From Patescibacteria group bacterium (GTDB lineage: Bacteria; Patescibacteriota; Microgenomatia; Levybacterales; UBA12049): a DNA stretch of 38,267 nucleotides. The notes beneath the pieces are model-generated. The model saw only the letters and a program-made list of their open reading frames with translations. It was not told where the DNA came from and ran no database searches. The stretch covers positions 1 to 38,267 of the forward strand of contig DATFUR010000013.1 of the NCBI GenBank assembly GCA_035260725.1, given 5' to 3'. Below, piece after piece: positions 1-13,723 of the stretch. The position numbers and the translations under genes are program-made. Positions within the stretch are counted from its first letter, which is position 1. Every line of letters starts with the position of its first letter.

Positions 1-3000
1 ATTACCGCAACAGCAGGAGGAAATGCTGCAGCTAAGGTATCAACAACCAAATTATTCTTTAATCCATCCACCGGTCTTTTAACATCTACAGGATTCTCCG
101 GTCCATTAACAGGAAACGTAACAGGTAATGTTTCGGGAACTGCAGCAACAGTAACAGGAGCAGCACAGTCTGCTATTACCTCAGTCGGAAGTTTGGTTTC
201 GGGTACGGTAATTGCCTCGCAGACATTCAGTACAAACGCAATTTCCGACTCTGGAGCATTAACTATTACTTCCGCAACAGCGAGTAACTTAACTCTTGGT
301 GCAGCAGGTACAACCGGAACCTTAACTCTTGGTCTTTCAACAGATACCAATACTATTAGTATTGGTGCCGGAGCAACAGCTGACACAAAGATTCAGACAA
401 TCAACATTGGTACCGGAACCGGTGTTACAACAGGTAAGGCTGTTATTACAATTGGTGAAACAAATGGAGCATCCTCTCTTACCTTAAAAGCAGGAACAGG
501 TGACATTAACTTCTATTCAACTTCAAACAAGATTACAAGTTCAGGTGCATTAACAGTTGCATCCACCATTACAGCTGCAACAACTGGCACTATTAATGGA
601 ATCAATGTCAGCTCCTCTGCAGTCTCAGGAGTTACGACTCTTGGTCTTTCTGGAGCGATAACCGGTGCCACAGCAACAAATACAATCAATGGAATAGTTA
701 TCAACTCCGGCGCTGTATCAAGTGTTTCAACATTAGGATTATCCGGTGCAATTACGGGTGCAACCGCAACCAACACTATTAATGGTTTAATTATCAATGG
801 TTCTACGCAGACATTAGCTGCTGATGGAATAACTTTTGCCGCTGGGACAGGGAGCCACAATGTAACTTTGACAGCGGGAACCGGGGGAACAACAGCAGGA
901 CTTATTGTAATTCCTGATACAACTGCGAGTCAGGTAATAACGGCAACAACAGGAACTCTCAATAACGCGGTCGGAGTTGCAGTAAATTCTGTTTCGGGAG
1001 GAGCTGCGGCCAAAATTGCTATCTCCGGAGTAGTTTCTGCAGTTGCCGATAACGTGATTGCAGTAGGAGATTATATTGGTATTGGAACAACAACTGCCGG
1101 ACGCGCAAAAAGTTTGGGGTCTACATATCCTACGACTGCAAATATCCAGGTTTTAGGAAGAGCACTTACTGCACAAGCTAGTGCCGGATCTACATTTAAT
1201 TTACTTTTGTCCGCTTTGGATAATAACGTTTCGGCAGGAGCGGCTTGTACAACTTGTATAGTCCAGATTCCAACAGGAAATACTGCAAATACAGCTAACA
1301 ACAATGTTATTTCTCCGACTGCCGGCAGCGTAAAAGGATTAACTATTAACGGAACCACCGATGCTACGACTGCTGCGGACATTTTGAATTTGATATCCGG
1401 TGTTAATACTGGTCTAACCTCGACTAACGGAATTCTTTTTAATCAAAATTCTGCCGGAACAACTACAAATGGTTTGAATATAACTCAAACAACAGGTACA
1501 TTAATAAGCGGAATTTCTTTCTCAGGGACAATCGGGACAGATATTACTACCGCTTCAGGTAGGGTTCTAAGTATCGATTCTGGTACAACGGGAGGCATCA
1601 ACATAGGTACTTCGGCCAATGCTAAAACTCTAACTCTGGGTAACACAACCGCTCAAACTAACGTAATAATAAATGCCGGAGTAACAACCAATAACACTGC
1701 GGGTTTGGCTGTTAACGCAAACGGAGCTACAACCGATACGGCTGGAGCCGTCGGAATTTCTGCAACCGGCTTGACAACAGGTACGGGACTCGCGCTTACT
1801 GTTTCGGATCCAAAAGTCAATGCAAGTGGTGCCACGAATGCAAAATTATCGACGGGTAAAATAATCAGCGTCGTCGCAACCGACGGCAAAAATTACTTGT
1901 CTTTGGACAACAGGGATTTGACAGTTGGGGGACACACAAATCAAGTTACAGTTACAAACGTCAACGATATTTATGTCTATGATACGACAAGGGATTTAGA
2001 CGGCGGAAGATGGACTCAGGATGAAAGAGCAAAGCAAGCATCCTGGTATAACGAAACAAGGACAGCGGCTGACGCTTGTACGATTGGAACAAACCTTCGT
2101 TGTGGAGCCCAGGTATTTCCAAAAAAAGCGATTTTGGTCGTAACAGCCTCCGGTACAACCAAAAATCTTCTTATATTTGACGCAAAAGACAATTCCTTGT
2201 GGATGGAATTTGACGCTTCGGGAGCGCAGGTTGCATTAGGATCATCGTCGACCACTGTTAACACTCTGTCTTCAGTATTTGCGCTCAACGGGAATATCTA
2301 TGTCGGAACTAATGGAACGACCCCGACCGGAATGTACGAAATTAACTTCAAGAACGACAAAATTACAAGGTATAACACGACAGACGCCGAAGATTATTCC
2401 GGTGCGATTTCGTCAAGAAACACGACGCAGACCGCAGCCTACAACAGCCAGGGAAGAACGGCCATGGCTATTCTTAGCGCATCGGTTAACGACGTCTTCG
2501 CCCAGCCAATTAATGGAAAAACTTTTGTTGCGGTTGCAACGGCGGGAGGAACAAACGGAGGAATTTCGCTTATTAACGAAACCTCCCAGTCGGTTGCTAA
2601 CTTAGGAACAGCCAGCAAAGCTTATACGGCTGCCTGGTACAGCCCGGACGATAATGTTTATGGTTTGAATTCGACGGATAAAGAATTGGATGTTTGGTAT
2701 CAAGCCTCCACCAAGTCCGGTAATACAGTTGCTTTCTCCGCAATGTATGACGAAACGGGTACCAGTGCAACAAGCGGGACTGGAGTTTTGGGCCCCGCCT
2801 TATTCTCGGCAGCTCCCACAATCAACGCCTCCGCGCCCGACGCTTTGTACGTAACTAATGGAACATCGACTGTAGACGGACAGTCCAACACAATTTACGT
2901 TGCGTATAATGAAGGACTTACCGTTTTGCAGGAGAAAACCGGGAACGAAACTGCAGGGTCAGTTAAGTATTATTCTTCCAATAATATTTCGGAAGAGATG

Positions 3001-6000
3001 ATTGGAGATACCAGGGCAATGCTTCCCATGGCCGGGAATACGACGCTAAATAATGCCTTGATAAGTAATGCATCAGATAAAGATGTTTCTATTAAAGCTG
3101 TAGGTTTTACTTCAAAAGGCACAACTAATGTGACCTCTGTTTCCGGAGTAAGAGGTCTTGCAAAGAATTTTGATGGTACGGCAAACTATCTTTGTACTGG
3201 AACGGTTGCAAATACTTGTGCCGATAACACTAACCTATCTATTGCAACAAATACCTTCGCCCTTAGCTTTTGGATTAAGACAACGAGCGCTGTGACAACG
3301 AGGACTATTGTTAACAAGCAGGTAACCTCAAGCCCAACAGCAGGATCTGCCGGATATTATGTCGGAATTACAACGGGACATTTATTGACTGCAAACGTAA
3401 CCGATGGAACGACTGCAATAACGGCGACATCAACAAGAATCCTTGACGATAATCTTTGGCACCACGTTGTAATTTCGGAAAATAGATTGATTAACAATTC
3501 AGCTTGTAACGCTGCCGGTAACTCGTGCACTTTGACTCAATATATCGATGGTGTCCAGGATGGTCAATCCGCTGCAAATACAACTCAATCAGGTTCGATG
3601 ACCAATACAAACTTTATGACACTAATGGCAAACTCTGCCGCAACAGCAGCACAGTTTACGGGAGGAGTTCTGGACGAGTTCTCATTCTTTGCTAATTCGA
3701 TATCGGCAGCGCAGGTTCAGAAAATGTACCAAGTTGGCTACAGAGCTTTGTTCTCAAGCAATAATGGAAGCGGTACGTTCCATTCCGCTCAAACAATTCG
3801 TGGAGTTACGGTTGCGGCGGACGCATCCCAAGCACTAAACGGCTCGTCAGTTGTCAAAGCCGTTAGACCAATGATGGATAATGGACTCATCTATACGGGA
3901 GGAGCAGCCGGAGTTTCGGTAATAGGAATTGACAATGACACTTTGCAAGATCTTTATTCTACTTCGATTACGACTAAAGACGATGTCAATGCAGCTTACG
4001 ATGCGACAAACGGAAACGCGGTCGTTTCGGTATCCAATACAAAGGGTTATGGAACCGGAACACTTTTAGCAATTGGACAAAACAACTCCGGAGCGGGTGG
4101 AATTTGGGCAGAGAGTAACGACACAACCTTTAAAGATTTCCTTGCAACAAGCTATGACCCATTTGGCATGACCTTTACCCAGACAAACTTGAGCGTAGAC
4201 AGAGTTCTAAGAGTTAGTAACCAGGGGGGATCAAGGCTAGATAATCTTACGATAACCGGCACTACTCAACCAATTGTCCCGGATATATTTAGAGTGGACA
4301 ACAACGGTGTTGCAGTCAGTGTCCCGACGGAAGCTTTATACACCAATGGAACAAACACCATTGCCGGTGTGACAATTTCTGCAATGAATAATATAACTAT
4401 GAATGGAGGAACAGCAGTAACCTTCAATGGTATTAGTACGACTACGCCAAATATAACTGGAACCTCCGGTACGCCAACAGCAAATGGAGAAAATATTACT
4501 GTTGGAACAGTAACAACTGCCGGCACCAATGATGGAATAAAGATTACCTTGCCAACGGGATCGGGTTCAATTACGACTGCCGGAACTATTAGTGGTATTG
4601 AATTGCCAACCGTGGCGGCAGGTCCCGGAGCAGGATCTTTAAATGGAATCAAGATTGGTAGCATCACTACTCCAGGTGCTGGAACAGAAACAGGGTTAAA
4701 TATTGGTTCAGGCTGGGATACGGCTATAGGCGTGACTGATTCTCAAGCCGTAGCCAATACTTTGGTAAATATTACAACATCTAATACAGGTCAAACCGGT
4801 AATTCTCTTTTGACCCAAACTGCATCAACTGCTACGGTCACCAATGGCCTGGTCAGATTTAACTTTAACGGTATACGAACGACTGCTGGCAATGGTTTCC
4901 AGATTGATGATGTCTCCACCACTCTTGCTACAGCTATGCAAGTCAATGTTAACTCTCTGACTACTGGCTTGGGACTCTCGGTCATTAACACTGGTACTGG
5001 ACTTACTACTGCAGGTGTCAACACCGGTTCATTATTAAATATCAATTCTTCCGGCGCAACCACTGCCTTTACAGGTTCTCTGGCAAATATAAACTTTGCT
5101 GGTACCGCGGTTGCAAACACTGGTGCTCTTTTGAACATCAATGCCTCGGGTACCTCCCAAATAACTCAACCTATCCTTGTTACCGACGCATCAACCGGTG
5201 CCACTACCAACGGTATGGTCCGCTTCAACTTTACTGGTGCCCGCACCGCGGCTGGCAATGGTTTCCAAATCGATGACATTTCAACAACCCTTGCAACGAC
5301 TATGAAAATTAACACCAACTCTTTAACAACAGGTAACGGTTTGGTGGTATCGGCAACAGCCGCTGGATTAACCGGTAACGCCTTGTCAGTTACCACTGGT
5401 TCAACAGGTGCGCCTACAGCCGGGTTGGTCCGCTTTAACTTCAACGGCATCCGAACAGCCGCCGGAGTTGGTTTCCAGATCGACGATATTTCGACGACGC
5501 TGGCAACTGCTATGCAACTTAATGCTAACTCACTCACAAGCGGTCTTGGATTCACGATTGCTTCCTCCGCAACCGGCATTACTACTGCCGGAACTAACGT
5601 TGGTTCACTCTTAAACGTTAATGAAACAGGCGCGATGACTGGGATGACCGGGCAACTTGTCTCCATAAACGCTTCAGGCGCAAACGCTGTCGGTTCAACC
5701 GGTTCCGCTCTTAATATCAACCTTGCCGGTACCGCGCAACTGATGAAGGGTATTACTGTAACTAGTGCAACGACTGGGGTAACGACAGATATGATGACCA
5801 TGACTTACGGAGGTATTGCAACATTGGCAACCACCAATAAATTTATTCGCTTCATTAATAGCGGTGCTGCTACTCAAGGCCAAATATCCGGAACAGGTAC
5901 CACTGGTCAAGTGGTGTATACCACCACGTCTGATCTTCGTCTGAAGCACAACGTCACTGATACTCACTTTGGTCTGACTGATCTCATGAATCTCCACGTT

Positions 6001-7260
6001 CGAGATTATATTTTCAACGCTGATACTACCAATACAATACAAACTGGTTTCGTTGCTCAGGAATTGAATGGAATATATCCAGAAGCAGTTGCAACAAATG
6101 GCGATGATGGAATGGTGTCGCTTAGCAATGATGCAATTCCATGGTCAGTCGATTACGGTAAAGTTACTCCACTTCTTGTCAAAGCCATTCAAGACCAACA
6201 AGTTCTTGTAGTTGGTTTACAGACAAGTATTGCGGCGCTTAGAGAGCTTAAACAGTCGACCAGTTCCGCAGGATTGAATAATCAAATTACTCAAGCAAGT
6301 TCTTCTGCTCAAATCTCTACATCGTCCGCACAGCTTGCTCAAAAAATCATATTTGATAATGATTTTGTAAAGGTTTTAGGTTCACTTACAGTTGACAAGT
6401 CTGCGATAGTTTCATTAGATCTTTCCGTACTTGGAAAATTAACTGCAACGGGAGGATTAACAGTTTTTGGCCCTGCAGAATTTAAAGACAAAACAATCTT
6501 TGACTCGATTGCGGAATTCTTCGGAAATGTAATATTCCACAAGGATGTAGCTTTTGAAGGCCGTCCTACATTTAACAACGATACAGCAGGCTTTGCAATT
6601 GTTAAGAAAGATGCAGAAAGCGTTGACATAGTTTTTGATAAAGAATATACACAAACACCATTGGTAAATATCTCTGTAACAATAGACGACAATGTCAATG
6701 GAAGTGCAGATCCTGCAGTTTTGGCGGCCCAAACCAAACTGGAAAGCGACATATTAAACGGAGACATAAAATATGTAGTAACCAGAAGAAATACCCGCGG
6801 ATTTACAATAAAAATAAATAAGCCCGCTGTCGGGGATATTAAATTCTCATGGACGGCATTTGCTATAAAGGACGCAAAGACTGCGGTTAGTAGTGCTGTT
6901 TTGTCTACTCAAACATCAACGCCTACGCCCACGGCCACGCCGATTGCAACACCTGTCCCAACTGTAGTTCCCACCCCGACTCCATTGGTTTCTGCAAGTC
7001 CGACTCCCACACCAACTCCTACACCTAGCGCAACGCCGGTTGCATCTGTTCAGAGTGCATCGCAAACCTTAACGGTTAACCAAAACGATCTTGGATTTTT
7101 GAGAGTCAGAGATATTCCTGCTGCATCGGGGAGTGAGTTAGCGCAAGTTAACCCGGGCCAAACGTTTGAAATTAAAGGCACAGATAATGGATGGTATAAA
7201 ATTGAATATTCAACGGGCGCCTTCGGATGGGTTAGTGGAAGTTATGTAACTTTAAATTAA
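1..7260 (+). CDS. giant secreted/surface fibre- or adhesin-like protein, 5' end outside window (2419 aa in window)
   Basis: Frame 1 is open from nt 1 (ITATAGGNAAAKVSTTKLFFNPSTG...). The TTG at 193 used by the ORF track is therefore not the true start. Stop TAA 7258-7260. Composition is T/G/A/N/S-rich with fibre-like repeats. LamG-like, S74-like, PT-linker and SH3b-like blocks are listed separately. Confidence 0.9.
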   Translation: MTATAGGNAAAKVSTTKLFFNPSTGLLTSTGFSGPLTGNVTGNVSGTAATVTGAAQSAITSVGSLVSGTVIASQTFSTNAISDSGALTITSATASNLTLGAAGTTGTLTLGLSTDTNTISIGAGATADTKIQTINIGTGTGVTTGKAVITIGETNGASSLTLKAGTGDINFYSTSNKITSSGALTVASTITAATTGTINGINVSSSAVSGVTTLGLSGAITGATATNTINGIVINSGAVSSVSTLGLSGAITGATATNTINGLIINGSTQTLAADGITFAAGTGSHNVTLTAGTGGTTAGLIVIPDTTASQVITATTGTLNNAVGVAVNSVSGGAAAKIAISGVVSAVADNVIAVGDYIGIGTTTAGRAKSLGSTYPTTANIQVLGRALTAQASAGSTFNLLLSALDNNVSAGAACTTCIVQIPTGNTANTANNNVISPTAGSVKGLTINGTTDATTAADILNLISGVNTGLTSTNGILFNQNSAGTTTNGLNITQTTGTLISGISFSGTIGTDITTASGRVLSIDSGTTGGINIGTSANAKTLTLGNTTAQTNVIINAGVTTNNTAGLAVNANGATTDTAGAVGISATGLTTGTGLALTVSDPKVNASGATNAKLSTGKIISVVATDGKNYLSLDNRDLTVGGHTNQVTVTNVNDIYVYDTTRDLDGGRWTQDERAKQASWYNETRTAADACTIGTNLRCGAQVFPKKAILVVTASGTTKNLLIFDAKDNSLWMEFDASGAQVALGSSSTTVNTLSSVFALNGNIYVGTNGTTPTGMYEINFKNDKITRYNTTDAEDYSGAISSRNTTQTAAYNSQGRTAMAILSASVNDVFAQPINGKTFVAVATAGGTNGGISLINETSQSVANLGTASKAYTAAWYSPDDNVYGLNSTDKELDVWYQASTKSGNTVAFSAMYDETGTSATSGTGVLGPALFSAAPTINASAPDALYVTNGTSTVDGQSNTIYVAYNEGLTVLQEKTGNETAGSVKYYSSNNISEEMIGDTRAMLPMAGNTTLNNALISNASDKDVSIKAVGFTSKGTTNVTSVSGVRGLAKNFDGTANYLCTGTVANTCADNTNLSIATNTFALSFWIKTTSAVTTRTIVNKQVTSSPTAGSAGYYVGITTGHLLTANVTDGTTAITATSTRILDDNLWHHVVISENRLINNSACNAAGNSCTLTQYIDGVQDGQSAANTTQSGSMTNTNFMTLMANSAATAAQFTGGVLDEFSFFANSISAAQVQKMYQVGYRALFSSNNGSGTFHSAQTIRGVTVAADASQALNGSSVVKAVRPMMDNGLIYTGGAAGVSVIGIDNDTLQDLYSTSITTKDDVNAAYDATNGNAVVSVSNTKGYGTGTLLAIGQNNSGAGGIWAESNDTTFKDFLATSYDPFGMTFTQTNLSVDRVLRVSNQGGSRLDNLTITGTTQPIVPDIFRVDNNGVAVSVPTEALYTNGTNTIAGVTISAMNNITMNGGTAVTFNGISTTTPNITGTSGTPTANGENITVGTVTTAGTNDGIKITLPTGSGSITTAGTISGIELPTVAAGPGAGSLNGIKIGSITTPGAGTETGLNIGSGWDTAIGVTDSQAVANTLVNITTSNTGQTGNSLLTQTASTATVTNGLVRFNFNGIRTTAGNGFQIDDVSTTLATAMQVNVNSLTTGLGLSVINTGTGLTTAGVNTGSLLNINSSGATTAFTGSLANINFAGTAVANTGALLNINASGTSQITQPILVTDASTGATTNGMVRFNFTGARTAAGNGFQIDDISTTLATTMKINTNSLTTGNGLVVSATAAGLTGNALSVTTGSTGAPTAGLVRFNFNGIRTAAGVGFQIDDISTTLATAMQLNANSLTSGLGFTIASSATGITTAGTNVGSLLNVNETGAMTGMTGQLVSINASGANAVGSTGSALNINLAGTAQLMKGITVTSATTGVTTDMMTMTYGGIATLATTNKFIRFINSGAATQGQISGTGTTGQVVYTTTSDLRLKHNVTDTHFGLTDLMNLHVRDYIFNADTTNTIQTGFVAQELNGIYPEAVATNGDDGMVSLSNDAIPWSVDYGKVTPLLVKAIQDQQVLVVGLQTSIAALRELKQSTSSAGLNNQITQASSSAQISTSSAQLAQKIIFDNDFVKVLGSLTVDKSAIVSLDLSVLGKLTATGGLTVFGPAEFKDKTIFDSIAEFFGNVIFHKDVAFEGRPTFNNDTAGFAIVKKDAESVDIVFDKEYTQTPLVNISVTIDDNVNGSADPAVLAAQTKLESDILNGDIKYVVTRRNTRGFTIKINKPAVGDIKFSWTAFAIKDAKTAVSSAVLSTQTSTPTPTATPIATPVPTVVPTPTPLVSASPTPTPTPTPSATPVASVQSASQTLTVNQNDLGFLRVRDIPAASGSELAQVNPGQTFEIKGTDNGWYKIEYSTGAFGWVSGSYVTLN
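619..804 (+). repeat. two tandem 31-aa (93-nt) protein repeats inside the giant gene
   Basis: Unit 1 is 619-711 and unit 2 is 712-804. The core LGLSGAITGATATNTING is identical at protein level in both units, but 15 of its 18 codons differ synonymously (ctt/tta, ggt/gga, tct/tcc, ...). Confidence 0.85.
3166..3740 (+). other. LamG / concanavalin-A-like lectin domain (Laminin_G_3-like) within the giant protein
   Basis: The family's hallmark order of motifs is present: NFDGTANYL ... FALSFWIKT ... LWHHVVISE ... QYIDGVQ ... GVLDEFSFFANSISAAQVQKMY. Confidence 0.7.
4840..5560 (+). repeat. three diverged copies of a roughly 45-50-aa core repeat within the giant protein
   Basis: The core G[LM]VRFNF.G.RT.AG.GFQIDD[VI]STTLAT.M..N.NSLT.G.G starts near 4840, 5206 and 5413. 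Spacing is 366 and 207 nt. Protein identity is high and nucleotide identity is moderate. Confidence 0.85.
5920..6250 (+). other. Peptidase_S74-like intramolecular chaperone auto-processing domain (phage tail-fibre / endosialidase type)
   Basis: TTTSDLRLKHNV...LHVRDYIF...TGFVAQELNGIYPEAV...VDYGKVTPLLVKAIQDQQ. The Ser codon is at 5929-5931 and the Lys codon at 5944-5946. This gives the S-x4-K dyad spacing of endosialidase-type self-cleaving chaperone domains. Confidence 0.75.
6919..7039 (+). repeat. Pro/Thr-rich linker (TPTPTATPIATPVPTVVPTPTPLVSASPTPTPTPTPSATP)
   Basis: Direct translation. It is low-complexity at protein level, and codon usage varies between repeats. Confidence 0.9.
7090..7257 (+). 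other. bacterial SH3 (SH3b)-like C-terminal domain of the giant protein
   Basis: LRVRDIPAASGSELAQVNPGQTFEIKGTDNGWYKIEYSTGAFGWVSGSYVTL matches the usual SH3b pattern (LNVR..ps......l..G......... gWykV.....GWv...Yl). Confidence 0.65.
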
Positions 7261-7301: not shown

Positions 7302-7739
7302 ATGAAGCTTTTATTGAAATGGTCGAAAAATCATTTTTTCCTCGTAATTCTTCTTGCCATAACTCTTCTTTCTTCGCTTTACTATTACACACAGCTTCAA
7401 AAAACCCAAAAAGAATTGGCAGATCTTAAGAAAAATCCAACAGTCGCAGCCCAAAATGAAAACAATGCTCTTATTGCAAAAGTAGGCCAGCTAGTAGTAT
7501 TGCCAACAGGAGAAACGCCAACAATCGCAACAGTTTCGGATATAAGTAAACTAAAAAATCAGCCGTTTTTCTCCAAAGCAGAGAACGGAGACAAAATTTT
7601 AATTTATACACAAGCTAAAAAAGCTTATCTTTACTCTGTTGGGTTGAATAAAATTCTAGACGTTGCACCGGTCAATATAGGAGCGCAAGGAAATAGCCCT
7701 CAAGTAGCAGGTGAATCAACCGGACCTATAAAAAAATAA
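7302..7739 (+). CDS. membrane-anchored hypothetical protein, tandem paralog 1
   Basis: ATG start. N-terminal hydrophobic helix (FFLVILLAITLLSSLYYY). Its core, LPTGETPTIATVSDISKLKNQPFFSKAENGDKILIYTQAKKAYLY...APVNIG, is shared with the next gene. A consensus promoter lies directly upstream. Confidence 0.8.
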   Translation: MKLLLKWSKNHFFLVILLAITLLSSLYYYTQLQKTQKELADLKKNPTVAAQNENNALIAKVGQLVVLPTGETPTIATVSDISKLKNQPFFSKAENGDKILIYTQAKKAYLYSVGLNKILDVAPVNIGAQGNSPQVAGESTGPIKK

Positions 7740-7740
7740 T

Positions 7741-8145
7741 ATGGCAAAACAAATAGTACTTATTGTTCTTTTGATTCTGGCCATAATCGGAGGAGTTTTT
7801 GCGTTCACAAAATATCAGGCAACGCAGACGGAACTTACAAAATTAAAGCAAAATCCTCAATCTGTTGCCCAACAGGAAGTAAAAGATTTAGTCGCTCAAG
7901 TTGGTAAAATAGTAGAGCTTCCAACAGGAGAAACGCCAACAGTTGCAACAATTACAGACAAATCAAAGCTTACAGATCAACAGTTTTTTGCTAATGCGCA
8001 AAACGGAGACAAGGTTTTAATCTATGTGCAGGCTAAAAAAGCTTATCTTTATAGACCTTCAACAAACAAGCTCATTGATATAGCGCCGGTAAATGTGGGA
8101 ACAGCTTCCGCAAGTCCATCCCCGTCAGCAACCCCTAAGAAATAG
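7741..8145 (+). CDS. membrane-anchored hypothetical protein, tandem paralog 2
   Basis: ATG one nt after the previous stop. N-terminal helix IVLIVLLILAIIGGVFAF. The core LPTGETPTVATITDKSKLTDQQFFANAQNGDKVLIYVQAKKAYLY...APVNVG is paralogous to 7302-7739. Confidence 0.8.
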   Translation: MAKQIVLIVLLILAIIGGVFAFTKYQATQTELTKLKQNPQSVAQQEVKDLVAQVGKIVELPTGETPTVATITDKSKLTDQQFFANAQNGDKVLIYVQAKKAYLYRPSTNKLIDIAPVNVGTASASPSPSATPKK

Positions 8146-10939: not shown

Positions 10940-11509
10940 ATGATTTTGTCGGACCGCGACATCAAAAAGGCCTTAAATTCGGGCCGAATCAAGATAACCC
11001 CAACTCCGGACTTCAAAACCCAGCTTGGCTCATGCTCCGTCGATTTGCGCTTGGGAAACGTCTTCCGCGTATTTGAACACAGCAAAAATGCGTATCTTGA
11101 TCCGGCAAAAAAAGATTACACAAATGAAATAACAAGAGAAATAAAAGTTAAAAATGGCGATAAATTTATAATGCAGCCGGGGGATTTTGTTTTGGCGGTA
11201 ACCTTGGAGAAAGTAAAAATTCCTAATGATTTAATGGGAAGGCTCGAAGGGCGTTCGTCTTTGGGGCGTTTGGGAATAGTTGTCCATTCTACAGCTTCTA
11301 TTTTTGATCCGGGTTGGGACGGCAAATGCGTTCTAGAGCTTGGTAATCTGGGTCGAATGGCAGTATCCCTTACTCCCGGCATGAGAATATGTGCAATGAC
11401 CTTTGAAGAGCTCACAAGCTCTGCGGAAACACCCTACACAAAGAAAAAAAATGCTAAATACGTATTCCAAAAAGGACCGGGGGAGTCAAAAATTCACCAA
11501 GATTTATGA
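10940..11509 (+). CDS. dcd: dCTP deaminase (Dcd family)
   Basis: MILSDRDIKKAL...GSCSVDLRLGN...GRSSLGRLGIVVH...DPGWDG...LELGN and a C-terminal YTKKKNAKYVFQKGP tail typical of Dcd. Confidence 0.85.
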   Translation: MILSDRDIKKALNSGRIKITPTPDFKTQLGSCSVDLRLGNVFRVFEHSKNAYLDPAKKDYTNEITREIKVKNGDKFIMQPGDFVLAVTLEKVKIPNDLMGRLEGRSSLGRLGIVVHSTASIFDPGWDGKCVLELGNLGRMAVSLTPGMRICAMTFEELTSSAETPYTKKKNAKYVFQKGPGESKIHQDL

Positions 11510-12198
11510 AAAACCAAAAATATCACGTTGAATTCGATATAGATTTTAAAAGAAATTCTCACAGGGGTCTGTTTGTGGTTTTGGAGGGGATCGAAGCATC
11601 GGGGAAAACCACCCAAACCGAAAGATTAGGGAAAAAAATTTCAGAAAAATTAAATGTCCTCCTGACAAAAAATCCAACCGACAGCTATGTTGGTCAATTT
11701 ATAAGAAAAAGTTTGCTTGCAGGTAAGGTTAGAATGCCGCCGGTTGCCATACAATATTTATTTGGAGCAGATCGGGAAATTCAACAAGAAGAAATAAATG
11801 AACATTTAGAAAAAGGAGAGGTTGTAGTCTCTGATAGATACTTTTGGTCTTCGGTTGCGTATGGCATTGCGGACAAAAAAGAGTTTGATTACGAAAATTC
11901 TGCGGAACTTTCACTCGTGGCCTTTAGTCTTCTTTCCATGTATCACCAGTTTATTCTTCCGGATATTACTATTTACTTAGAAGTTCCTGTGGAGGAAGCA
12001 ATGAAGAGAATCACCGGTTCTAAAAAACATACCGAAATTTATGACAATGAAGAAATGAATGTTAGAGTGGAAAAGGGTTATAAATGGTTAATTAAAAAAT
12101 TTCCAAAAGAGTTTATAATTTTAGACGGAACAAAAAGCGAAGAAACTTTGGAAACAGAAATCCTTAAAATAATTAATTCAAAACTTAAAAACAAATGA
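11506..12198 (+). CDS. tmk: thymidylate (dTMP) kinase
   Basis: P-loop FVVLEGIEASGKTTQ and a DRY(F)WSS-type block (SDRYFWSSVAYG). ATGA overlap with dcd. Confidence 0.85.
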   Translation: MKNQKYHVEFDIDFKRNSHRGLFVVLEGIEASGKTTQTERLGKKISEKLNVLLTKNPTDSYVGQFIRKSLLAGKVRMPPVAIQYLFGADREIQQEEINEHLEKGEVVVSDRYFWSSVAYGIADKKEFDYENSAELSLVAFSLLSMYHQFILPDITIYLEVPVEEAMKRITGSKKHTEIYDNEEMNVRVEKGYKWLIKKFPKEFIILDGTKSEETLETEILKIINSKLKNK

Positions 12199-12734
12199 TT
12201 TTAGGACCTAAAAAATTATTGCAGTTGGTAAAAACAAAAAAACTGGTCGTTGGTTTGTCCGAGCGGGAACTGACAAATCCGGAAGGAGCGGGTTTTGACC
12301 TTCGTTTGGGGGAAGTTTATAAGATTTCGGGCACTGCTTTTTTAGGCGAAACAGAAAGAAAAACTCCTACTGTCAAACTAGTTAAAAAGTACTCAAAGAG
12401 TATCAAAAATAAGCTAATTTTGAAGCCGGGGGATTTTTATTTGGTAACGACGATAGAGAGTTTTAACGTTCCGCAAAACTTAACTGTCAATTTTAAACCG
12501 AGGACAACTACTTTTCGCTCGGGACTTTTTTTGCGGACGGGAAATGTTGCTCCCGGATACAAAGGGCCGGTTACTTTTGGTTTAAAAAACGAAGGAAAAG
12601 TAAAAGTGACAATCGAAATGGGGGCGCGGTTTGTCCACGCGCAGTTTGAAGAAGTAAAAGGCGGCGGTTCACTTTACCGTGGACAATGGCAAGGTGGTAG
12701 AATAACAACGCGCAAGCGCGAGAAGCAAGTATGA
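12195..12734 (+). CDS. second Dcd/dUTPase-superfamily protein (dCTP deaminase- or dUTPase-like)
   Basis: GAGFDLRLGEVY, PGYKGPVTFGLKNEG and GARFVHAQF, with the tail GSLYRGQWQGGRI. ATGA overlaps on both sides. Confidence 0.7.
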   Translation: MILGPKKLLQLVKTKKLVVGLSERELTNPEGAGFDLRLGEVYKISGTAFLGETERKTPTVKLVKKYSKSIKNKLILKPGDFYLVTTIESFNVPQNLTVNFKPRTTTFRSGLFLRTGNVAPGYKGPVTFGLKNEGKVKVTIEMGARFVHAQFEEVKGGGSLYRGQWQGGRITTRKREKQV

Positions 12735-13723
12735 AAAAAAATCAAAAAACAAAAATCAAAAATCAAAATCACCCCGAATACCAATACCTAAATCTAGCAC
12801 GTGAGATTCTTAAAAGTGGAATAAAACAAACCGACAGGGGAACCGGTGTTTCGGATTACAGTATTTTTGGAAGGCAGTCGGTTTACGACTTGTCCAAAGG
12901 TTTTCCTCTTCTTACCACGAAGAAAGTTTACTGGAACGGAGTAATTCAGGAGCTTTACTGGTTTTTCTCGGGACAGACAAACATTAAATATCTTGTAGAT
13001 CACAATGTCCACATCTGGGACGATTACCCCTACAAAATTTACAAATCAAAAAATCCAAAGACCAAAATGACAAAGGACGAGTTCATTCAAAAGATTCGTG
13101 ATAACAGTTCATTCGCAAAAAAATGGGGGGAATTGCCCCGGATTTACGGCGAGATGTGGCGCAAATGGCCGACCCGCAAAAAAGGCAAGACAATAGACCA
13201 GCTCAAATGGATTATTGATGAGCTGAAAGCAGATCCCAACGCCCATAACGCGATTGTAAACTCCTGGAACCCCGAATATTTGTATACAATGGCAGACAAG
13301 AAGGACGCTTCGAGGTTTCCGATTTGCCACAACATGTACCAGGTTAGTAACCGCGGGGGAAAACTCTCATTAATTCTTTATCAGAGGAGTTGCGATTTGT
13401 TTTTGGGAGTTCCTTTTAATATCGCGTCATACGCATTGTTAACGCTTATTCTAGCAAAAATTTTAAAACTTGAGCCCGGAGAGTTTGTTCACGTTTACGG
13501 CGACGTCCATATTTATGAAAACCACATAAAACAGTTTAAAGAACAACTAAAAAGGATTCCTCGGCCATTTCCTAAGGTAACGTTAAAAGGAAAATTAAAC
13601 AAGATCGAAGATTTTAAGCCCGAGATGGTAGTTTTGGAAAATTATGACCCCTACTCTCCGATTAAGGCCGAACTTACTGTTGCGGGAGGATATTATGAGG
13701 GAAGAAAAAGAAAACGAAAATAG
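12731..13723 (+). CDS. thyA: thymidylate synthase ThyA (long form with L. casei-type insertion)
   Basis: DRGTGVSDYSIFG, GELPRIYGEMWRKW, catalytic FPICHNMYQ, LYQRSCDLFLGVPFNIASYALL and GDVHIYENH. Confidence 0.85.
   Translation: MKKNQKTKIKNQNHPEYQYLNLAREILKSGIKQTDRGTGVSDYSIFGRQSVYDLSKGFPLLTTKKVYWNGVIQELYWFFSGQTNIKYLVDHNVHIWDDYPYKIYKSKNPKTKMTKDEFIQKIRDNSSFAKKWGELPRIYGEMWRKWPTRKKGKTIDQLKWIIDELKADPNAHNAIVNSWNPEYLYTMADKKDASRFPICHNMYQVSNRGGKLSLILYQRSCDLFLGVPFNIASYALLTLILAKILKLEPGEFVHVYGDVHIYENHIKQFKEQLKRIPRPFPKVTLKGKLNKIEDFKPEMVVLENYDPYSPIKAELTVAGGYYEGRKRKRK

Follow-up and report, generated by a model that had tools for sequence, protein, structure and literature searches.

Gene organization of the window

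The window, i.e., the whole 38,267-nt stretch of DNA analyzed, harbored at its 5′ end a gene for a giant fibre-like surface protein, followed on the same strand by two genes for small single-pass membrane proteins (Table 1). The frame of the giant gene (frame 1) contained zero stop codons upstream of nt 193, so that the reading frame ran off the window; residues were numbered from the TTG at nt 193. An identical protein (100%) was present in two other assemblies, Logan SRR10360644 and JGI 3300002917, and the same repetitive N-terminal region was the break point in all three assemblies, with the gene incomplete in each. Most of the full-length relatives inspected carried a signal peptide or a transmembrane (TM) segment at the N-terminus. 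The C-terminal part of the protein displayed the order stalk repeats–S74–flexible linker–beta-rich segment–H-type-lectin-like domain–PT linker–SH3b. The stalk repeats, which matched the S74-type relative L021 in BLASTP, sat just upstream of the predicted cleavage site; they were visible at the protein level only, and Tandem Repeats Finder detected no DNA-level tandem repeats in the giant gene.

TABLE 1 Features annotated in the window, by nucleotide position and by residue of the giant protein
Feature	Position (nt)	Strand	Residues	Basis and remarks
Giant fibre-like surface protein gene	1..7260	+		5′ end open at window edge; stop codon 7258-7260; at least 2,419 aa
Stalk repeat, three copies of about 70-100 aa each ('TNGxVRFNFxGxRTxAGxGFQIDDxSTTLAT...')	4831..5613	+		Translation reading; overlapping BLASTP segments to L021
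Predicted scissile bond Thr1912/Ser1913	5926..5931	+	1912-1913	Profile alignment; Ser1913 (5929-5931) is the predicted nucleophile
Peptidase_S74 intramolecular chaperone domain, complete	5929..6255	+	1913-2021	Pfam PF13884, family alignment, AF2, Foldseek
Lys1918, predicted general base	5944..5946	+	1918	S+5 spacing; opposite K592 (MyRF) and K916 (endoNF) in alignments
Ser/Ala/Gln-rich low-complexity linker	6256..6345	+	2022-2051	Direct reading; pLDDT <50
Beta-rich segment, start of shared C-terminal cassette	6346..6558	+	2052-2122	pLDDT 40-65 as monomer
H-type-lectin-like beta-sandwich domain (predicted)	6559..6903	+	2123-2237	pLDDT 80-96; Foldseek
Pro/Thr-rich linker	6904..7065	+	2238-2291	Core about 40 aa; direct reading; pLDDT <50
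Bacterial SH3 domain (SH3b, SH3_3)	7066..7257	+	2292-2355	PF08239; pLDDT 95-98
Small single-pass membrane protein, paralog 1	7302..7739	+		56% identical to next gene; without Pfam family
Small single-pass membrane protein, paralog 2	7741..8145	+		At least 816 homologous clusters at 50-70% identity

The AF2 model of small membrane protein paralog 2 (pLDDT 85) consisted of a helix at the N-terminus and a small domain of beta sheet, without a fold match in the PDB. The small membrane protein belongs to a family that is a conserved partner of the giant gene: in 56 of the 80 Patescibacteria loci examined, a homolog was encoded downstream of it in the same orientation, at a distance of 600 nt or less in 40. 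The contig, which belonged to a Patescibacteria MAG, carried rpsB, G6PD, thyA, SHMT, and an aaRS, and searches for tRNA and Rfam features found none. The context was cellular, not phage.

The S74 domain and its Ser-Lys dyad

The giant protein contained a genuine and complete Peptidase_S74 domain, which was internal and had an intact catalytic dyad. PF13884 matched residues 1913-1966 over profile positions 1-57 of 58, with 31.5 bits (E 2e-7) for the whole protein and 34.1 bits (E 3.5e-8) for the C-terminal fragment, relative to a gathering score of 22. A chance match was excluded because a HMMER exhaustive search with the S74 region yielded 27,471 matches (top E 3.5e-42); identity to relatives was 45-67%, and 16/16 invariant columns of the family alignment were present. 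The earlier note had read here the motif S-D-L-R-L-K with its Ser at 5929-5931 and its Lys at 5944-5946 and had let the domain end near 6250; the motif (residues 1913-1918) was found at exactly these positions, and the last residue of the domain was 2021 (nt 6255).

Ser1913 aligned with profile position 1 of PF13884. In a family-profile alignment to structures, the Ser1913 column coincided with the residue at which the freed chaperone of the GA-1 neck appendage begins (3gud, 'SDERHK'), and the motif fell on MyRF 587-592 ('ADLRAK' in 7dc3). MyRF S587/K592 correspond to endoNF S911/K916, cleavage N-terminal of Ser has been shown experimentally for MyRF, and cleavage in endoNF requires Arg897 of the upstream beta-helix (PMC8326128). 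The Pfam alignment left Ser1913 and Lys1918 in place as the dyad; Lys1918 was invariant in the family alignment, and both it and the dyad as a whole were conserved in 149/150 closest representatives, a count that is partly circular for best-scoring matches because the dyad belongs to the most conserved, score-driving motif.

In the AF2 monomer model of the fragment, strands were accompanied by a helix of 38 residues (89-126 of the fragment), with pLDDT 60-86 in the S74 part; a long helix (about residues 1988-2025) closed the S74 domain, as in terminal relatives. With Foldseek, the S74 part of this monomer model hit 7dc3, the ICA domain of MyRF (E 4e-3, TMt 0.56), but at an rmsd of 10.8. A single-sequence phmmer search of the C-terminal fragment against the PDB retrieved SH3b only, and S74 structures were reached with the family profile.

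The region C-terminal to S74

The S74 domain was followed by 334 residues, and the distance from Ser to the stop was 443 aa, in agreement with the roughly 335 residues and the 443-aa putative product given earlier. The beta-rich segment was homologous to the equivalent segment of P0001-P0007. The earlier note had described a single beta-rich stretch in this part; its beta-rich character was borne out, but a predicted H-type-lectin-like domain within it (residues 2123-2237) had gone unrecognized. Foldseek matched this domain to SLL-2 (3wmp), the Helix agglutinins (4q56 and 2ccv), and discoidin II (2vm9) at E 0.013-0.03 and TMt 0.53-0.57; further matches were the RBD of the tailspike of cyanophage Pam1 (7eea) and the fibre of R2 pyocin (6cl6). 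Pfam H_lectin (PF09458) was sub-threshold in the window protein (19 bits vs a threshold of 24, E 0.0016), and the threshold was exceeded by the homologs P0006 (26.3 bits) and P0030 (32.4 bits). The H-type-lectin-like domain of residues 2123-2237 was well predicted by the model, and sugar binding is its putative function.

The 40-aa PT linker and the SH3b-like module noted earlier were both recovered, the former as the core of residues 2238-2291 and the latter by Pfam SH3_3 (PF08239; residues 2303-2352, E 4e-11, 43.3 bits vs 27) together with a Foldseek match to the cell-wall-binding SH3b domains of phage endolysin Psm (4krt; E 6.6e-5, rmsd 1.8), which phmmer matched too. Pfam detected no enzymatic domain in the 443-aa fragment, and no hydrophobic stretch of about 20 aa was seen by direct reading in residues 2022-2355. 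In the relative P0003, the lectin-like domain and SH3b were separated by an inserted peptidoglycan hydrolase of the Peptidase_M23 type. Judged from sequence and models, the modules C-terminal of S74 (SH3b and lectin-like) are candidate binding modules.

Comparison of S74 positions among relatives

S74 positions were compared in the 150 cluster representatives closest to this S74 domain, S74 being classified as internal when at least 160 aa lay between Ser and the C-terminus (88-159 aa in terminal relatives). S74 was internal in 63/150 representatives (42%) and terminal in 87, and the Ser and Lys were retained in 62/63 internal and 87/87 terminal relatives, counts subject to the same partial circularity as above. 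For the frequency of S74 domains followed by more than 300 aa, raised in the earlier note, the survey gave a Ser-to-end distance of at least 300 aa in 17 of the 150 and of at least 443 aa in 3. The tails of the other internal-S74 proteins were mostly another cassette: (i) weak similarity to the beta-rich part was found in only 2/150 and (ii) about half of the 63 internal tails shared a different module, 'W-L-A-D..N-G-I ... L-C-V-G..T-C-V-T', with PT/ST linkers and, in some cases, Ig-like domains behind it.

The earlier note had held that the internal position departs from the canonical arrangement. This stood insofar as the phage layout, with S74 at the extreme C-terminus, did not apply (443 aa in the window protein vs 88-159 aa in the 87 terminal relatives), but the departure was not surprising: the internal self-cleaving S74/ICA domain of MYRF and MrfA likewise leaves a long C-terminal fragment (PMC3742440, PMC8326128), and internal S74 is neither unprecedented nor rare. 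The layout is common in Patescibacteria, a lineage-wide design and not a one-off.

Comparison of the lectin-like cassette across Patescibacteria

The lectin-like cassette had 141 related loci in genomes across Patescibacteria, 80 of which were examined for architecture. A self-cleaving-type chaperone domain was located upstream in the same ORF in 74/80 loci: (i) a phi29-gp12-type Peptidase_G2 in 69 and (ii) S74 in 5. The S74-plus-lectin architecture was thus found in five other genomes, on contigs up to 733 kb, with the dyad retained in 5/5. Homology of the window protein to the G2-type relatives started at about the boundary of linker and beta segment (residues 2035-2066), just after S74 and the linker. 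The tails beyond the lectin-like domain were highly variable in relatives (Ig-like repeats, PT or acidic linkers, or SH3b), and SH3b followed the lectin-like domain in only 2/80 loci.

PF11962 matched 15 of 67 G2-like domains (E up to 0.01, best E 2e-8). A profile of 5 G2-like sequences had no match among solved structures, and the 67-sequence profile was needed to retrieve 6qz9, 3gqh, and 3suc from the PDB at E 7e-4 to 1e-2; its alignment placed the conserved 'D-L-A-E' on gp12 'D692-F-A-E', exactly at the S691/D692 autocleavage site, and the D and E of this D-x-x-E motif were at least 90% conserved in the G2-like domains. By profile comparison, the G2-like sibling domain is related to the phi29 gp12 autochaperone (PF11962). 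The presence of two unrelated autoproteolytic chaperones in one position suggests that trimer nucleation plus cleavage is the function under selection.

The cassette had no relative in 2.9 million IMG/VR viral contigs. No description of S74 or other intramolecular chaperones in Patescibacteria surface proteins was found in the literature searched, which lay mostly outside subscription journals. The lectin-like domain and its chaperone-linked cassette are new here.

Proposed mechanism and alternative explanations

The reading preferred here, with a probability of roughly 0.55, is that the window protein is a giant trimeric phage-fibre-like surface protein in which S74 nucleates the trimer and cuts at T1912/S1913, freeing the fibre from a wall-binding 443-aa cassette. 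Upon export of the protein, three C-terminal regions would gather, possibly concentrated on the cell wall by SH3b, and S74 and its terminal coiled-coil helix would form a trimer and template the folding of the upstream fibre; the Ser1913/Lys1918 dyad of the assembled trimer would then cut the Thr1912-Ser1913 bond, and the fibre (at least 1,976 aa) would part from a 443-aa trimeric fragment. By analogy with full-length relatives, from which export and anchoring of the window protein are inferred, the fibre would probably be held by an N-terminal membrane anchor; the fragment would keep the chaperone, the lectin-like domain, and the putatively peptidoglycan-binding SH3b and may remain on the wall or surface. 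Such a sequence of events would follow the MYRF-like logic 'assemble, then release from the tether'. Retained cleavage is favored because the dyad is kept in 62/63 internal relatives and in 5/5 other S74-plus-lectin proteins and because an unrelated Peptidase_G2-type self-cleaving chaperone interchangeably fills the same position.

Another origin of the ORF, as an assembly chimera, a gene fusion, or a prophage tail-fibre gene, would account for the contig breaking inside the gene in all assemblies and would fit phages being the best-known source of S74, but it is highly improbable. An assembly or fusion artefact was ruled out by the identical protein in three independent assemblies and by the recurrence of the S74-plus-lectin architecture in five other genomes; a phage or prophage origin was ruled out by the housekeeping genes flanking the giant gene and by the IMG/VR result. 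A different use of the same domains, possible but rather doubtful, is that S74 permanently holds the trimer together from an internal position, either without any cleavage or with a nick after which the parts stay tightly bound, and that the lectin-like domain and SH3b form a distal tip binding host-bacterium glycan or peptidoglycan in episymbiosis. Phage and eCIS fibres have beta-sandwich receptor-binding tips, the Foldseek matches to 7eea and 6cl6 are of this kind, H-lectin figures in a list of binding domains of eCIS fibres (PMC12923769), and cultivated Patescibacteria are episymbionts relying on adhesins (PMC10633639). The N-terminal signal or TM segment of most full-length relatives inspected would also make the C-terminus distal, and the high variability of the tails after the lectin-like domain is as expected of target-binding tips. 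A point against the preferred reading is that severing the lectin-like domain and SH3b would seem counterproductive if they form the far, receptor-binding end of the fibre in the way known from phage and eCIS fibres. Against the reading without release, the near-invariance of the catalytic Ser and Lys in internal copies would lack a reason, the G2-type siblings keep their D-x-x-E cleavage motif, and retained processing is the simpler account of a swap between two unrelated autoproteolytic chaperones. In phage systems, cleavage is followed by release of the chaperone. In the solved or tested S74 systems covered, cleavage takes place upon trimer formation (PMC8326128, PMC3742440).

It is also conceivable, though unlikely, that the protein is cleaved and that its giant N-terminal part serves as the carrier of the 443-aa fragment, which would act as the actual effector in the form of a trimeric lectin/SH3b factor, either secreted or associated with the wall. 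The M23 hydrolase of P0003 points in this direction, SH3b plus a hydrolase being the architecture of endolysins and autolysins, but the fragment of the window protein lacks an enzymatic domain, the rarity of SH3b after the lectin-like domain makes wall binding an accessory and not the cassette core, and a 2,000-aa fibre would be unnecessary as a carrier.

The preferred reading, assembly followed by cleavage, can be extended more tentatively to a conserved surface-fibre system, new to description, in which a giant trimeric fibre always ends C-terminally in a chaperone (S74 or G2, module-swapped) plus the H-type-lectin-like domain and has a conserved small membrane-protein partner encoded alongside; the cassette might be a wall- or membrane-docked platform, possibly on the small protein, that nucleates the fibre and is then cut off. 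SH3b, Ig-like domains, and the M23 hydrolase would be optional extras in such a system. If true, it would be a bacterial extracellular counterpart of the MYRF assemble-then-release switch and would account for how these episymbionts build long appendages.

Significance and comparison with known systems

The intramolecular chaperones S74 and G2 are the textbook case of a folding cap at the C-terminus of a phage fibre that is disposed of after use. The MYRF precedent indicates that the same device can serve as a release switch, and in Patescibacteria the caps are routinely internal, fused to lectin-like or wall-binding modules, and interchangeable between two unrelated chaperone families. The CPR radiation has almost no experimentally characterised surface biology, and the present analysis offers a testable hypothesis for the assembly of giant CPR fibres or adhesins; the S74/G2 interchange also provides a natural experiment for finding properties common to both types of chaperone. 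Annotators who meet the label 'tail fiber domain-containing protein' in a Patescibacteria MAG should read it as a chromosomal surface protein and not as prophage evidence.

The phage S74 proteins (K1F endoNF, GA-1 3gud, T5 pb1 8hqz, and the long tail fibre tip 6f45) and the window protein shared the family, the S-x4-K at the first residue, the terminal helix (predicted in the window protein), and the placement of the domain at the end of a long repetitive fibre. They differed in that 334 residues with folded binding domains followed S74 here and the gene was chromosomal in a bacterium; the piece released in phages is the chaperone only (about 90-160 aa) and is discarded, whereas here it would be 443 aa. 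A domain related to the phi29 gp12 autochaperone (Peptidase_G2, PF11962; 3gqh, 3suc, and 6qz9) filled the S74 position in 69/80 siblings; G2 is unlike S74 in fold and catalytic chemistry, was absent from the window protein, and is strictly C-terminal in phi29.

With H-type lectins (2ccv, 4q56, 3wmp, and 2vm9; PF09458) the window protein shared the predicted fold (TMt 0.53-0.57) at an identity of about 14-18%. H-type lectins form trimers, and placement behind a chaperone that trimerises would be in keeping with this. Its SH3b matched in family and fold those of endolysins and NlpC/P60 hydrolases (Psm 4krt and lysostaphin SH3b 5leo) but was joined by a PT linker to a fibre protein, not to a peptidoglycan hydrolase.

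MYRF/MrfA (ICA domain, 7dc3) harbors an internal S74-type domain as well, and there cleavage N-terminal of Ser parts a functional N-terminal trimer from a long anchor-bearing C-terminal piece, which makes MYRF the best functional analogy for reading the cut as a release from a tether. Unlike MYRF, the window protein had no Ndt80-type DNA-binding domain (Pfam) and no TM helix after S74; its putative tether would be SH3b plus the lectin-like domain, and its setting would be extracellular and bacterial.

Extent and domain layout of the giant protein

The giant ORF (+ strand, frame 1; stop codon at nt 7258-7260) encoded 2,355 aa when read from the TTG at nt 193, from which all residue numbers are counted. 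Translation of nt 1-330 was stop-free above nt 193, and the lack of an upstream stop in this stretch meant that the gene extended beyond the window and that the protein had at least 2,419 aa. Two further public assemblies, Logan SRR10360644 and JGI 3300002917, contained the gene for a 100% identical protein. At the 5′ end of the ORF, three independent assemblies (window 1-192 and the contig ends of L002 and L003) broke no more than about 60 codons apart among Thr/Gly/Ala-rich N-terminal repeats. For residues 1011-1124 (window ~3223-3564), the receptor-binding N-domain of clostridial neurotoxins (E 0.0015) and Laminin_G (E 0.012) scored weakly and below threshold, which suggests that the fibre contains a LamG or concanavalin-like lectin domain.

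The C-terminal region was delimited by translation and by an AF2 monomer model (residues 1900-2355, 26-sequence alignment). Ser and Lys of the S-D-L-R-L-K motif lay exactly where the earlier note had placed them, the Ser-to-stop fragment had the same length of 443 aa, and the S74 end expected near 6250 corresponded to the end of a long terminal helix. The beta-rich segment described there was recovered, but a lectin-like domain within it had gone unrecognised; the SH3b-like module was borne out by Pfam SH3_3 (residues 2303-2352; 43.3 bits versus a threshold of 27).

Features of the giant protein and of the associated small membrane proteins
Feature	Position	Strand	Basis or remark
Ser of S-D-L-R-L-K motif (residues 1913-1918)	nt 5929-5931	+	translation
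Lys of S-D-L-R-L-K motif (residues 1913-1918)	nt 5944-5946	+	translation
S74 domain, long terminal helix ending at residue 2021	to nt 6255	+	AF2 model and translation
S/A/Q-rich linker	residues 2022-2051	+	AF2 model and translation
Beta-rich segment	residues 2052-2122	+	AF2 model and translation
Compact beta domain, lectin-like	residues 2123-2237	+	AF2 model and translation
PT-rich linker	residues 2238-2291	+	AF2 model and translation
SH3b domain	residues 2292-2355	+	AF2 model and translation
Small single-pass membrane protein, paralog 1	7302-7739	+	directly downstream of giant gene
Small single-pass membrane protein, paralog 2 (56% identical to paralog 1)	7741-8145	+	directly downstream of giant gene
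Small membrane protein homologs	L021 7118-7540; L073 6696-7064; L046 2128-2715; L005 7640-8143	same strand	example loci

S74 domain and catalytic dyad

Pfam Peptidase_S74 covered residues 1913-1966 (profile positions 1-57 of 58) with 31.5 and 34.1 bits versus a gathering score of 22. Residues 1900-2035, used as HMMER query in an exhaustive search of 1.84 billion cluster representatives, gave 27,471 matches at E <= 1e-3 (best E 3.5e-42), and the S74 match was thus far above chance. Aligned with 22 diverse relatives, this domain matched every one of the 16 columns that did not vary; S14, D15, R17, and K19, from the S-D-x-R-x-K motif, were among them. Among PDB sequences, the S74 profile retrieved tail fibre 8jov (E 1e-8), MyRF ICA domain 7dc3 (E 7e-8), and long-tail-fibre tip 6f45 (E 5e-7), together with T5 L-shaped fibre 8hqz and GA-1 neck-appendage chaperone 3gud. 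Its Ser column coincided with the first residue of the GA-1 chaperone as released ('SDERHK'), and its S/K columns with MyRF residues 587-592. MyRF is cut between P586 and S587, S587A and K592A abolish cleavage, and S587/K592 are equivalent to endoNF S911/K916 (PMC8326128). The S74 part of the model had moderate confidence (pLDDT 60-86), and Foldseek matched the monomer to the ICA domain of MyRF (E 4e-3, TMt 0.56). The domain can be assigned to the S74 family at the levels of sequence, motif and, loosely, predicted fold.

Lectin-like and SH3b modules

The lectin-like domain was modelled at pLDDT 80-96, and Foldseek matched it with H-type lectins (SLL-2 3wmp, Helix agglutinins 4q56 and 2ccv, and discoidin II 2vm9; E 0.013-0.03, TMt 0.53-0.57) as well as with a cyanophage tailspike and a pyocin fibre at their beta-sandwich tips. 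Pfam H_lectin hit residues 2174-2223 below threshold, which was passed by the homologs P0006 and P0030. The SH3b domain (pLDDT 95-98) resembled the wall-binding SH3_3 of phage endolysin Psm (4krt) and of NlpC/P60 enzymes. The putative released fragment would hold two binding modules, as judged from profiles and model.

Three relatives displayed modular variations: (i) Peptidase_M23 inserted between lectin-like domain and SH3b in P0003 (477 aa), (ii) an intein splicing-domain fragment at the N-terminus, ahead of S74 and then the lectin-like domain, in P0009 (587 aa), and (iii) S74 at residue 114 followed by ~340 aa with a weak K1-lyase_C-like domain at the end in P0010 (536 aa).

Internal S74 domains among relatives

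Tail length was counted up to the C-terminus, starting at the residue that aligned with Ser1913, in the 150 best cluster representatives. The distances were bimodal: 88-159 aa in 87, representing the canonical terminal arrangement, and at least 160 aa in the remaining 63 (42%). Counted in this way from the Ser, tails reached at least 300 aa in 17 of these 150, at least 400 in five, and at least 443 in three, all counts being lower bounds since truncation of a protein can only shorten its tail. Ser and Lys were kept in 62/63 internal and 87/87 terminal domains, a conservation that is suggestive rather than independent because both residues add to the scores by which matches were picked.

The tails of the other internal-S74 representatives were mostly unrelated to that of the giant protein. 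A module 'W-[LF]-A-D..N-G-I ... L-C-[VI]-G..T-C-[VI]-T..Q-L' occurred in 31 of the 63 (e.g., P0081, P0098, P0112, and P0145), with PT/ST-rich linkers behind it and, in many cases, an Ig-like domain 'P-V-I-x-[LI]-N-G..P..I..G..Y.D.G-A'; this module may be a further standard way of extending internal S74 domains. Two to three S74-like stretches were found in each of P0063, P0064, P0074, P0076, P0091, P0095, P0159, P0184, P0189, and P0196, with a second 'SD.RLK' motif in the tails of, e.g., P0074, P0076, and P0095, a pattern that would imply tandem self-cleaving domains.

Cassette distribution and chaperone exchange

A search with the 456-aa C-terminal region gave two kinds of relatives: terminal-S74 proteins alike in the S74 part only and cassette proteins without S74. 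The lectin-like module alignment A3 was scanned against one genome per species of GTDB r232, yielding 141 confirmed loci; 80 of these were retained, and nearly all named records belonged to Patescibacteria lineages (Levyibacteriota, Collierbacteria, Saccharibacteria, Chisholmbacteria, Paceibacterota, Uhrbacteria, Yanofskybacteria, and others). Architectures were read from the ORF translated round each match, with HMMs built in this analysis: (i) G2-like domain(s) then lectin-like in 67/80, (ii) G2-like, lectin-like, and SH3b in 2/80, (iii) S74 then lectin-like in 5/80 (L021, L029, L046, L047, and L073), and (iv) lectin-like alone in 6/80. Chaperone-then-cassette thus recurred in 74/80 loci, and the S-x4-K dyad was kept in all five other S74-plus-lectin proteins.

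Pfam Peptidase_G2 was matched by 15 of the 67 G2-like copies (best E 2e-8), and the 67-sequence profile retrieved gp12 structures 6qz9, 3gqh, and 3suc (E 7e-4 to 1e-2) plus a tailspike chaperone domain; by sequence, the G2-like domain is related to the phi29 gp12 autochaperone. G2-like domains (alignment A4) were themselves internal in 69/80 loci (among L004-L083), with a median of ~513 aa from domain start to ORF end and two to three copies in some proteins, making an internal autochaperone of either type the rule for this protein class.

BLASTP of the giant protein with S74-type L021 covered stalk repeats, S74, and lectin-like domain (36% over 815 aa), while similarity to G2-type L004 (58%) and L005 (43%, PT linker and SH3b included) began only just past S74 and its linker. 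This boundary marks the cassette as a module joined to either of two unrelated self-cleaving chaperones.

About 25 loci were titled 'uncultured Gammaproteobacteria', 'Pseudomonadales', or 'Pseudobdellovibrionaceae' yet carried the Patescibacteria-type gene pair, including L069 (OZ246414.1), a complete chromosome of 915,171 bp, and L008, a 936-kb contig; these labels are probably wrong.

Genomic neighbourhood

The rest of the window encoded ribosomal protein S2, an M50 (RseP-type) protease, glucose-6-phosphate and 6-phosphogluconate dehydrogenases, a class II aminoacyl-tRNA synthetase, SHMT, ThyA, Tmk, two dCTP-deaminase-like proteins, a nucleotidyltransferase, a CDP-alcohol phosphatidyltransferase, and an aminotransferase. 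Scans of the window for tRNA genes and Rfam families gave no hits. A compact dTMP/dTTP cluster with overlapping start/stop codons occupied 10940-13723 (+) in the order dCTP-deaminase-like, thymidylate kinase, second more divergent dCTP-deaminase/dUTPase-like, and thymidylate synthase. The giant gene is a chromosomal gene of a CPR bacterium; phage origin was rejected given these housekeeping neighbours and a cassette for which 2.9 million IMG/VR viral contigs yielded no detectable relative.

In 56/80 loci, a small membrane protein homolog was encoded on the strand of the chaperone-lectin giant gene and downstream of it (within 600 nt in 40). The family comprised at least 816 clusters at 50-70% identity and contained no Pfam domain, some members adding LytR_C (PF13399); its AF2 model was confident (pLDDT 85) and had no fold match in PDB. 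This protein may partner with the fibre or the cassette, or anchor either of them.

Proposed mechanism and alternatives

Most full-length relatives inspected had signal or TM segments at the N-terminus; in the giant protein, the dyad was intact in a complete S74 domain with a flexible linker behind its terminal helix. The S74 trimer would nucleate folding of the fibre from its C-terminal side, in the manner of phage fibres, and cut T1912|S1913; the 443-aa trimeric fragment with lectin-like domain and SH3b would stay wall- or surface-associated, the fibre being held by its N-terminus. SH3b could gather C-termini on the wall ahead of trimerisation, and a wall-directed role of the cassette is supported by the peptidoglycan hydrolase inserted in that of P0003. 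We give cleavage with separation a probability of about 0.55. Alternatively, an S74 uncleaved or still attached would form a permanent node, with lectin and SH3b as a distal adhesive tip used on a host cell; this is possible though doubtful: it agrees with tails that vary and with cultivated Patescibacteria living as episymbionts (PMC10633639), but accounts more poorly for conservation of two different catalytic motifs. The 443-aa fragment is unlikely to be the effector, and it is very improbable that the architecture is an artefact.

Comparison with known systems

In the searchable literature, without most subscription-journal papers, no description was found of giant surface proteins of Patescibacteria that systematically carry S74 or G2 chaperones in an internal position, S74/G2 interchange upstream of a shared H-type-lectin-like cassette, the combination of S74, lectin, and SH3b (present only in this organism among the samples examined), or a small membrane-protein gene linked to the giant gene. 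The value lies in this lineage-wide pattern rather than in the single-gene oddity framed by the earlier note.

All domain families are known. The internal position departs from the canonical one relative to phages, as had been proposed, but it is neither rare among the relatives surveyed nor without precedent outside bacteria, where MYRF and MrfA are established to cleave themselves at an internal S74-type domain and to leave a C-terminal product that is long and anchored (PMC3742440). The likeness to phi29 gp12 concerns the sibling proteins, not the giant protein of the window: their near-invariant 'D-L-A-E' falls on 'D692-F-A-E' of gp12, with which the chaperone begins once released.
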